A stretch of 64,000 nt of DNA from Candidatus Moraniibacteriota bacterium (GTDB lineage Bacteria > Patescibacteriota > Minisyncoccia > Moranbacterales > UBA2206), in the NCBI GenBank assembly GCA_026396175.1, contig JAPLXG010000006.1, positions 76,492-140,491 on the forward strand, written 5' to 3'. Below are positions 2,599-2,656 of this stretch, piece by piece (within the stretch, counting starts at the first letter, position 1; every line of letters begins with the position of its first letter). Below the pieces are notes generated by a model, which did not search any database, had not been told where the DNA came from, and worked only from the letters and a program-made list of their open reading frames with translations. Made by a program: the position numbers and the translations under genes.

Positions 2599-2627
2599 TT
2601 GACAAATTATCAAAAATAAGATATTAT
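2599..2627 (+). promoter_or_regulatory. Near-consensus sigma70-type promoter TTGACA-17-TATTAT
   Basis: TTGACA at 2599-2604, 17-nt spacer, TATTAT at 2622-2627, 15 nt upstream of the ATG at 2643. Confidence 0.5.
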
Positions 2628-2656
2628 AGTTCATAGTTAAGTATGAACTATGAACT
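2628..2656. promoter_or_regulatory. Perfect 11-bp inverted repeat AGTTCATAGTT-N7-AACTATGAACT spanning the start codon of the HTH-PRT gene (candidate auto-operator)
   Basis: Seen directly: 2628-2638 is the reverse complement of 2646-2656; ATG at 2643 lies between the half sites. Confidence 0.4.

Follow-up and report, generated by a model that had tools for sequence, protein, structure and literature searches.

Positions 2628-2656 of the 64,000-nucleotide stretch analyzed here (contig JAPLXG010000006.1 of a Candidatus Moraniibacteriota bacterium; hereafter the window) hold a 29-bp element built around a perfect inverted repeat. It adjoins a promoter and precedes a gene whose product joins a winged helix-turn-helix (wHTH) domain to a ComF-type phosphoribosyltransferase (PRT or PRTase) module. 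Comparison with related loci indicates that the element is probably the operator through which this wHTH-ComF-PRTase controls its own gene.

Promoter, probable operator and gene in the window

Direct reading of the sequence gives a -35 hexamer, TTGACA (2599-2604), followed by a 17-nt spacer and the -10 hexamer TATTAT (2622-2627). A consensus scan scores this promoter (2599-2627) at 11/12. Immediately afterwards, AGTTCATAGTT (2628-2638) and AACTATGAACT (2646-2656) flank the spacer AAGTATG (2639-2645) and are perfect reverse complements over 11 of 11 positions. The original prediction, which a model made from the letters of this stretch, had claimed this promoter and this 11-bp inverted repeat, and both are borne out. 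The full repeat pattern, with as many as three mismatches allowed, has a single copy in the 64 kb and is found in none of 100 dinucleotide-preserving shuffles. Relatives of the gene, described below, reveal that the element is composed of 7-bp units (U1 to U4'), and the 11-N7-11 palindrome of the window consists of U1 with four bases of U2, together with their mirror image. The features are as follows.

2599..2604 (+): -35 hexamer TTGACA; TTGACA or TTGATA stands at equal distance in relatives with the same promoter layout (layout A, below)
2622..2627 (+): -10 hexamer TATTAT, adjoining operator unit U1 without a gap
2628..2656 (strandless): 29-bp putative operator containing the 11-N7-11 repeat; single copy in the window
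2628-2634: U1, AGTTCAT
2635-2641: U2, AGTTAAG, degenerate (5/7)
2642: operator center, T
2643-2649: U3', ATGAACT
2650-2656: U4', ATGAACT
2634..2636 (+): predicted transcription start about 7 nt past the -10, within U1/U2, placed by promoter geometry
2643..2645 (+): in-frame ATG within U3', the first of the open reading frame (ORF) but unlikely to be the conserved start
2658..3638 (+): wHTH-ComF-type PRTase gene from its probable start, 326 amino acids; stop codon TGA at 3636-3638

The longest ORF runs from 2643 to 3638 on the plus strand (331 amino acids), and its ATG sits in the N7 spacer of the repeat. The original description of the repeat as straddling the start codon holds for this ATG. 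However, the conserved start probably corresponds to the ATG at 2658, two bases beyond the repeat, because homologs start where query residue 6 stands (2643 numbering), the NCBI entry for the identical protein has 326 amino acids, and the ATG inside the operator does not share the gene's reading frame at some loci (L014/L015, L047 and L086) and is absent from the operator at others, whose units read GTAAACT, GTCAACT or AGGAACT. The ATG at 2643 is most simply a part of an ATGAACT unit; it is in frame in the subclade of the window gene and may be an alternative start. The leaders of nusA, ppa, tig and clpP (3868-3897, 5440-5469, 6166-6195 and 7698-7727) are A/T-rich and have no recognizable Shine-Dalgarno sequence. 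The organism therefore appears to start translation largely without one, and the lack of a Shine-Dalgarno sequence at the regulator gene is normal here.

The AlphaFold model of the protein (mean predicted local distance difference test score 85.6) comprises a wHTH, a short low-confidence linker and a PRT module spanning residues 81-325. Structure prediction thus upholds the N-terminal helix-turn-helix that had been proposed. In a single-sequence profile search the Pfam models HTH_24, HTH_11, Pribosyltran and PRTase-CE all give matches below threshold, and HTH_DeoR is matched too. The NCBIfam ComF model TIGR00201 is matched with an E-value of 5.7e-5 and 23.1 bits, far below its cut-off of 233.55. 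PADLOC returns a match to the PRTase at the C-terminus of the toxin PsyrT (E 1.4e-13), with ShosT and CRISPR-associated PRTases ranking lower. PDB profile and fold matches relate the wHTH to those of MarR, ArsR, AspA and Z-alpha domains, and PDB sequence search yields only weak matches to the wHTH and to the loop for phosphoribosyl pyrophosphate (PRPP).

2667..2840 (+): winged helix-turn-helix, residues 9-66 (2643 numbering), supported by the model and by Pfam and PDB matches; helices 10-21, 26-33 and 37-49, wing strands 53-58 and 61-66, conserved motif G-x-P-P-K-V-F-Y
2751..2789 (+): recognition helix ERAVFRQLANLIA, residues 37-49, with specificity positions E37, R38 and F41
2883..3617 (+): ComF-type PRT module including a helical 'hood', residues 81-325
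Residues 218-223: pyrophosphate (PPi) loop PPTxxR
Residues K246...Q255-K256...R264..N267: flexible loop
3501..3527 (+): PRPP loop DDAVGSGAT, residues 287-295

Conservation of these loops was assessed over 59 diverse family members. P218 and R223 of the PPi loop are invariant or nearly so, as are K246, Q255, K256, R264 and N267 of the flexible loop. In the PRPP loop, D287 is invariant and D288, S292, G293 and T295 are near-invariant. This last loop (DDAVGSGATL) aligns with 157-DDIITTGTTL-166 of Helicobacter pylori ComFC, where the mutation T165A abolishes nucleotide binding (PMC9005727). All three PRPP-binding loops are intact, and the module may bind a ligand or catalyze a reaction.

No ComF zinc finger is found: the alignments contain no conserved cysteine pairs, only C111 being conserved among close relatives. 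Every architectural variant examined consists of the wHTH and the PRT module only, and the wHTH is always kept. By its fold and its PRPP, PPi and flexible loops the PRT module is ComF-type, and its resemblance to PurR is architectural only. The winged-HTH fused to a type I PRTase, as first proposed, is thus supported in its architecture by Pfam and AlphaFold. The further parallel with PurR does not extend to the PRT domain, and neither PuR_N (PF09182) nor the NCBIfam purR model gives a match at E ≤ 1.

The operator and its probable reader across relatives

Homologs of the protein form 3874 clusters at E ≤ 1e-3; clustering at 50% identity gives 206 with E ≤ 1e-30. Among the matches listed, the named sources are Moranbacteria, other Patescibacteria and unclassified bacteria, and the annotations read 'hypothetical' or 'HTH domain-containing'. 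Six loci were gathered from genomes, 80 from metagenomes and six through exact-protein look-ups. One divergent member (P0163) is labelled 'uncultured Candidatus Thioglobus sp.' and derives from bins of sponge metagenomes (SPONN/SPONL), which means that the bin assignment is wrong or that the family extends beyond Patescibacteria.

At almost every locus, the 100 nt or so before the gene contain an array of 7-bp AGTTNNN units in direct and inverted orientation. A 29-bp frame, U1-U2-n-U3'-U4', was fitted to 80 non-redundant loci, and a unit was counted as matching when at least six of its seven bases agreed. Both outer units occupy the exact frame at 73 of the 80 loci, with a center-to-center spacing of 22 bp, or about two helical turns. 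The inner units are more variable. U3' is intact at 65 loci and U2 at 33, and at least one of the two is intact at 76. Each locus has a single short array of four, and up to six, units. The variable triplet differs by lineage (CAT, TAC, GAC, CCT or TAT), and in rarer units (AGTGCAT, AGTACAT) the fourth base is altered. Most loci have an identical triplet in all intact units, tandem direct units included, and one (L040) carries four direct GTTGACA units. Because tandem direct units in a locus share their triplet, the array resembles a repeated protein-binding site and not a hairpin.

The placement of the array relative to the promoter falls into two principal layouts among 77 classified loci. 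In layout A (18 loci, the window among them), U1 adjoins a -10 that resembles TATAAT and the operator spans approximately +1 to +29. In layout B (38 loci), the array lies a few bases before the -10 and overlaps the -35 and the spacer. At eight other loci the array has a -10 before it and another after it, and the layout of 13 more is unclear. Operators of the GAC class in layout B are integrated still more closely, in that U2 and the central A spell TTGACA and the operator thereby contains the -35. An ATG follows the -10 of layout B after 4-9 nt in 28 of 44 cases, and after exactly 6 nt in 20, which indicates that these mRNAs are probably leaderless. In both layouts the operator overlaps the core promoter. 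What the orthologs share is therefore a conserved putative operator over their own promoter, as is characteristic of a generic autoregulated wHTH regulator.

The operator class can be predicted from the protein. Among about 320 protein columns, those of F41, E37 and R38 have the highest mutual information with operator class, and all three residues lie in the first turns of the recognition helix. The fourth-ranked column is A26, at the start of helix 2, and the values drop sharply thereafter. The triplet of residues at 37, 38 and 41 predicts the class almost one-to-one:

x-R-R: CCT (33 of 33)
x-R-F: CAT (12 of 12)
R-[MV]-S: TAC (10 of 10)
R-Q-[FY]: GAC (13 of 14)
R-Q-H: TAC (3 of 3)
P-Q-F: TAT or GAT (5 of 5)

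That Arg41 should pair with CC, which is GG on the opposite strand, makes chemical sense. When pairs are matched for divergence, with PRT modules 85-97% identical, their wHTH domains are 89% identical if the operator class is the same and 57% identical if it differs.

Some relatives with similar PRT modules differ in both the helix and the operator. The proteins of L001 and L027 are 79% identical overall, with long runs of identity in the PRT module, yet their helices read ERAVF versus RMAVS and their operators are of the CAT and TAC classes. The pattern is alike in L058 versus L054. In another pair, L049 and L078, 945 bp of DNA are 100% identical, and beyond a breakpoint some 156 nt inside the gene the upstream sequences are unrelated. 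This breakpoint falls in the coding sequence of the wing motif G-x-P-P-K-V-F-Y, and an abrupt step in identity recurs at the same motif in L045/L078 and L058/L054. Because near-identical PRT modules carry differing operators and wHTH domains, with a breakpoint that recurs at the wing motif, the promoter, operator and wHTH appear to behave as an exchangeable cassette.

Paralogs provide a further view of these regulators. One locus (L047) contains two tandem family members (2477-3469 and 3812-4789), which are 60% and 39% identical to the window protein and have their own promoters with differing operator types. The second of these belongs to a subfamily, termed subfamily 2, of at least 1732 proteins that include representatives from Moranbacteria, Parcubacteria and Paceibacterota. 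At six loci of this subfamily, the recognition helix is conserved and different (consensus SIKTVYKHL), and the operator consists of two GGT[GT]AATATT units, often GGTGAATATTCACC palindromes, that flank or embed the -35. At most of these six loci only 6-7 nt separate the -10 from the ATG, and so these mRNAs look leaderless as well. No operator of this type is present in the window.

A few promoters combine operators of different types. In L071 (2420-2480), a GAC-class array over the -35 and a CCT-class array after the -10 both precede a CCT-type gene. In L031 (about 1900-1990), an operator of the subfamily-2 type (GGTGAGTATTgatcGGTTAATATTTACC) lies upstream of the gene's own heptad array. Composite promoters of this kind suggest that paralogs may cross-regulate one another.

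At one subfamily-2 locus (L097, 4061-6758), ThyX directly follows the regulator gene, and the opposite strand encodes a product with matches to models for thymidylate kinase, dCTP deaminase and dUTPase. This nucleotide-metabolism context is probably coincidental because no such neighbors occur at the other loci.

Probable autoregulation and competing explanations

Operator conservation, covariation with the recognition helix, the cassette pattern and the separate palindrome of subfamily 2 together lend strong support to autoregulation, most likely in the form of repression. Control of the gene through an operator at its own promoter had been the simplest reading of the window by itself, and it gains this strength from the comparative evidence (73 of 80 loci, and the helix residues that change with operator class). 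The wHTH would read the 7-bp AGTTNNN units (AGTTCAT in the window), two of them direct and two inverted. The 22-bp spacing of the outer units would fit a dimer or a higher oligomer held together by the PRT module. Because the operator adjoins the -10 and covers the transcription start, bound protein would block RNA polymerase and establish negative autoregulation; repression by occlusion is the simplest reading of this arrangement. Most likely, PRPP or a nucleotide in the PRT pocket would tune DNA binding, or else the PRT module would be an enzyme whose level is set by feedback.

Several points weigh against this account. Its support is wholly comparative, and from it we infer actual binding, the sign of regulation, stoichiometry, the identity of the ligand and catalysis. 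Covariation between helix and operator is partly confounded by phylogeny. Phylogeny alone is an unlikely cause, because the divergence-matched comparison and the confinement of the signal to three helix residues argue otherwise. The code is also not strictly one-to-one, since TAC operators are read by several helix types (RMS, RVS, RQH and one RQF). The single 100%-identical pair, L049/L078, is possibly a chimera of metagenome assembly. In addition, the physiological substrates of ComFC and ShosT are themselves unsettled (PMC9005727, PMC11961720).

Four other explanations compete with autoregulation by a dedicated repressor. The protein could be a global regulator in the manner of PurR, with further operators elsewhere, control of nucleotide salvage or PRPP-dependent genes, and PRPP as inducer. 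The architecture analogous to B. subtilis PurR and the conserved PRPP loop fit this idea, and the L071 and L031 promoters demonstrate that a promoter can carry the operator of another paralog. The regulon of additional operator copies that was originally envisaged did not emerge from a search of the 64-kb window and about 500 kb of flanks around some 85 loci. No second array with three or more class-matched units is present in this sequence. Searches for the operator, exact or with three mismatches, and for the 11-mer with one mismatch return self-sites only, and pairs of units occur at the level of chance (the pair at 49889-49907 of the window is intragenic and has the wrong spacing). There is thus no evidence for a regulon in the sequence searched; since this covers approximately 5-10% of any one genome of the Candidate Phyla Radiation (CPR), distant sites are possible. 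Frequent specificity switching and cassette exchange also fit poorly with a multi-site regulon because all of its sites would have to change together. With a PRT module that is ComF-type and not PurR-type, and no PuR_N or purR match, a global role is unlikely. Alternatively, the PRT module might be a toxin-like effector that is harmful when over-expressed, through PRPP depletion or genotoxicity, and that the wHTH silences until a phage factor or decoy DNA intervenes; the diversity of cassettes would then reflect conflict. PsyrT and ShosT, to which the PRT module bears a resemblance, are toxic (PMC4670107, PMC11961720). Moreover, an 89.9-kb viral contig in IMG/VR (UViG_3300005077_000011; L093, 4716-4744, minus strand) contains an exact CCT-class operator within a 150-aa ORF. 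It reads AGTTCCT AATTGGC t AGGAACT AGGAACT and is followed by TTT, as in many CPR loci. The contig encodes no homolog of the regulator, and the match could be due to chance or could be a binding site for the host regulator on a phage. This one match is anecdotal, as searches with three other operator classes and a reversed control gave none. No homologs were found on IMG/VR viral contigs or PLSDB plasmids, and a mobile or defense origin was rejected on these grounds. All-against-all clustering of the ORFs that flank 93 loci likewise revealed no recurrent neighbor family, whether a DprA-like antitoxin, com genes or another conserved partner. The family is instead widespread and highly conserved, with varied and partly housekeeping neighbors, unlike patchy defense islands, and a toxin-like role is accordingly doubtful.

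The remaining two explanations are far less probable. An RNA stem-loop that hides the start codon, or a DNA cruciform, could act independently of any protein. A transcript of the whole repeat would fold with -11.4 kcal/mol (z = -4.3), and the two arms of the repeat change in step across lineages. However, the predicted transcription start (about 2634) lies inside the left arm, which leaves a stem of only 5 bp (z = 0.49), and at the 38 layout B loci the array precedes the -10 and would lie outside the transcript. Within an arm, tandem units repeat each other exactly, which pairing does not need; the arm sequence covaries with recognition-helix residues; and the start codon is outside the element or out of frame at many loci. 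Rfam and tRNA scans found nothing at the operator site. Sequestration of the start codon by a hairpin was rejected on this evidence from folding, layout and frame, and has very little to recommend it. The heptads might also form a centromere- or iteron-like site for partition or replication, with autoregulation as a side effect, as in the omega/parS system of pSM19035. Arrays of 7-bp direct and inverted repeats are a hallmark of omega-binding parS (PMC9499535), and AspA and TubR, which bind centromeres, are among the structures closest to the wHTH. Against this stand the constant presence of one short array of four, or up to six, units exactly at the gene promoter, the lack of a ParA/TubZ-like partner or conserved neighbor, and the chromosomal loci with housekeeping neighbors of a family not found on plasmids. 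The PRT module, moreover, has no known role in partition, and such a function is highly improbable.

Autoregulation of the gene by its own wHTH protein could be one part of a larger arrangement. A speculative and somewhat unlikely extension is that wHTH-ComF-PRT genes constitute a CPR-specific, self-contained system in which recombining cassettes would give orthogonal specificities, paralogs would cross-regulate through composite promoters, and the PRT pocket would either couple expression to PRPP or nucleotide status or be a latent toxic effector. If true, a ComF-type PRT module would have a role in transcription for the first time, and the system would supply a natural, readable wHTH code in which, for example, Arg at residue 41 reads CC and Phe reads CA.

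Known systems and neighboring sequences

The best functional analogy is B. subtilis PurR (PDB 1O57/1P4A), which a study of ComFC describes as an autoregulated DNA-binding repressor whose affinity for DNA is lowered by PRPP (PMC9005727). Like PurR, the window protein carries a winged HTH at the N-terminus and, in the same polypeptide, a C-terminal PRT fold of type I that keeps a PRPP motif. Unlike PurR, it has a PRT domain that is not of the PurR/XPRT-like type. With ComFC (H. pylori, PDB 7P0H; TIGR00201) it shares the ComF-type PRT fold with PRPP, PPi and flexible loops, but a wHTH replaces the N-terminal four-cysteine zinc finger and the score is far below the family cut-off. ComFC binds single-stranded DNA and acts at the membrane in transformation, whereas a sequence-specific, double-stranded operator at the protein's own promoter is implied here.

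The toxins PsyrT/RqlH and ShosT of the PsyrTA/RqlHI and ShosTA systems have a homologous PRTase domain. In contrast to these, the window protein lacks a RecQ-like helicase or pyrophosphatase domain and has a DNA-binding domain fused instead, and its genes have no adjoining DprA-like antitoxin and were not found on mobile elements. The omega/parS system has contiguous 7-bp direct and inverted units over promoters and is autoregulated (PMC9499535). However, omega is a plasmid ribbon-helix-helix protein with 7-10 heptads and a ParA partner, while the array described here is chromosomal, keeps to a fixed 29-bp frame of four slots and would be read by a wHTH.

BirA, NadR, PutA and PyrR are bifunctional enzyme-repressors in which ligand status feeds back on transcription. 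They are comparable to the window protein in that a DNA- or RNA-binding function is fused to a nucleotide- or cofactor-handling catalytic fold, with PRT catalysis here being putative. Their folds and targets are different. To our knowledge, very few transcription factors have been characterized in CPR/Patescibacteria, and most conserved proteins of these bacteria have no assigned function. No account of a wHTH-ComF-PRT family was found in the literature on PRTase-CE or on PurR in CPR organisms. The family can be described as one-component wHTH regulators with a PRT sensor or enzyme module, and its standout features are the readable code and the modular exchange of cassettes.

A family of thousands of sequences, with at least two subfamilies, thus has a DNA target that may be read from genomes, and its three-residue recognition code is testable by simple mutants. 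It links a ComF-type PRT module to sequence-specific gene control and could reveal sensing of PRPP or nucleotide status in organisms that depend on salvaged nucleotides. Exchange of an operator together with its reader represents a clean natural case of regulator-operator coevolution, and the family is a possible source of orthogonal repressor/operator pairs for synthetic biology.

The genes around these regulators are varied. No com genes adjoin the regulator in the window or at the other loci. The window contains no other PRTase, canonical ComF or second family member, and other PRTases and ComF are also missing from the loci. In L001 (4700-5990), an ORF for a RAYT (REP-associated tyrosine transposase)/IS200-like Y1 transposase (4910-5539), flanked by REP-like (repetitive extragenic palindromic) repeats (TTAGGACCGTCCTAAGTT...), is inserted into the operator. 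This insertion duplicated about 140 bp of promoter and units U1-U3', and the transposase now resides behind a copy of the regulated promoter. A second operator at this locus was therefore rejected as a regulated target, being a duplication that arose from insertion of the RAYT/REP transposase.

At the downstream end of the wHTH-PRT gene in the window, the stop codon is overlapped by a promoter of the sigma-70 type that scores a perfect 12/12 (TTGACA-18-TATAAT, 3635-3664). Beyond this promoter come a hairpin that resembles a terminator and has a T-run (3690-3709), an AT-rich leader of approximately 190 nt and the nusA ORF at 3898. The region 3635-3897 has no Rfam match and could be a nusA leader or attenuator. 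Upstream, about 400 bp without genes (2196-2598) separate the regulator's promoter from two ORFs on the opposite strand (216-2195, minus). One encodes an uncharacterized multi-pass membrane protein of 397 aa whose linker is rich in Pro, Thr and Ala, and the other an uncharacterized 254-aa Lys/Glu-rich protein with a C-terminal hydrophobic helix.
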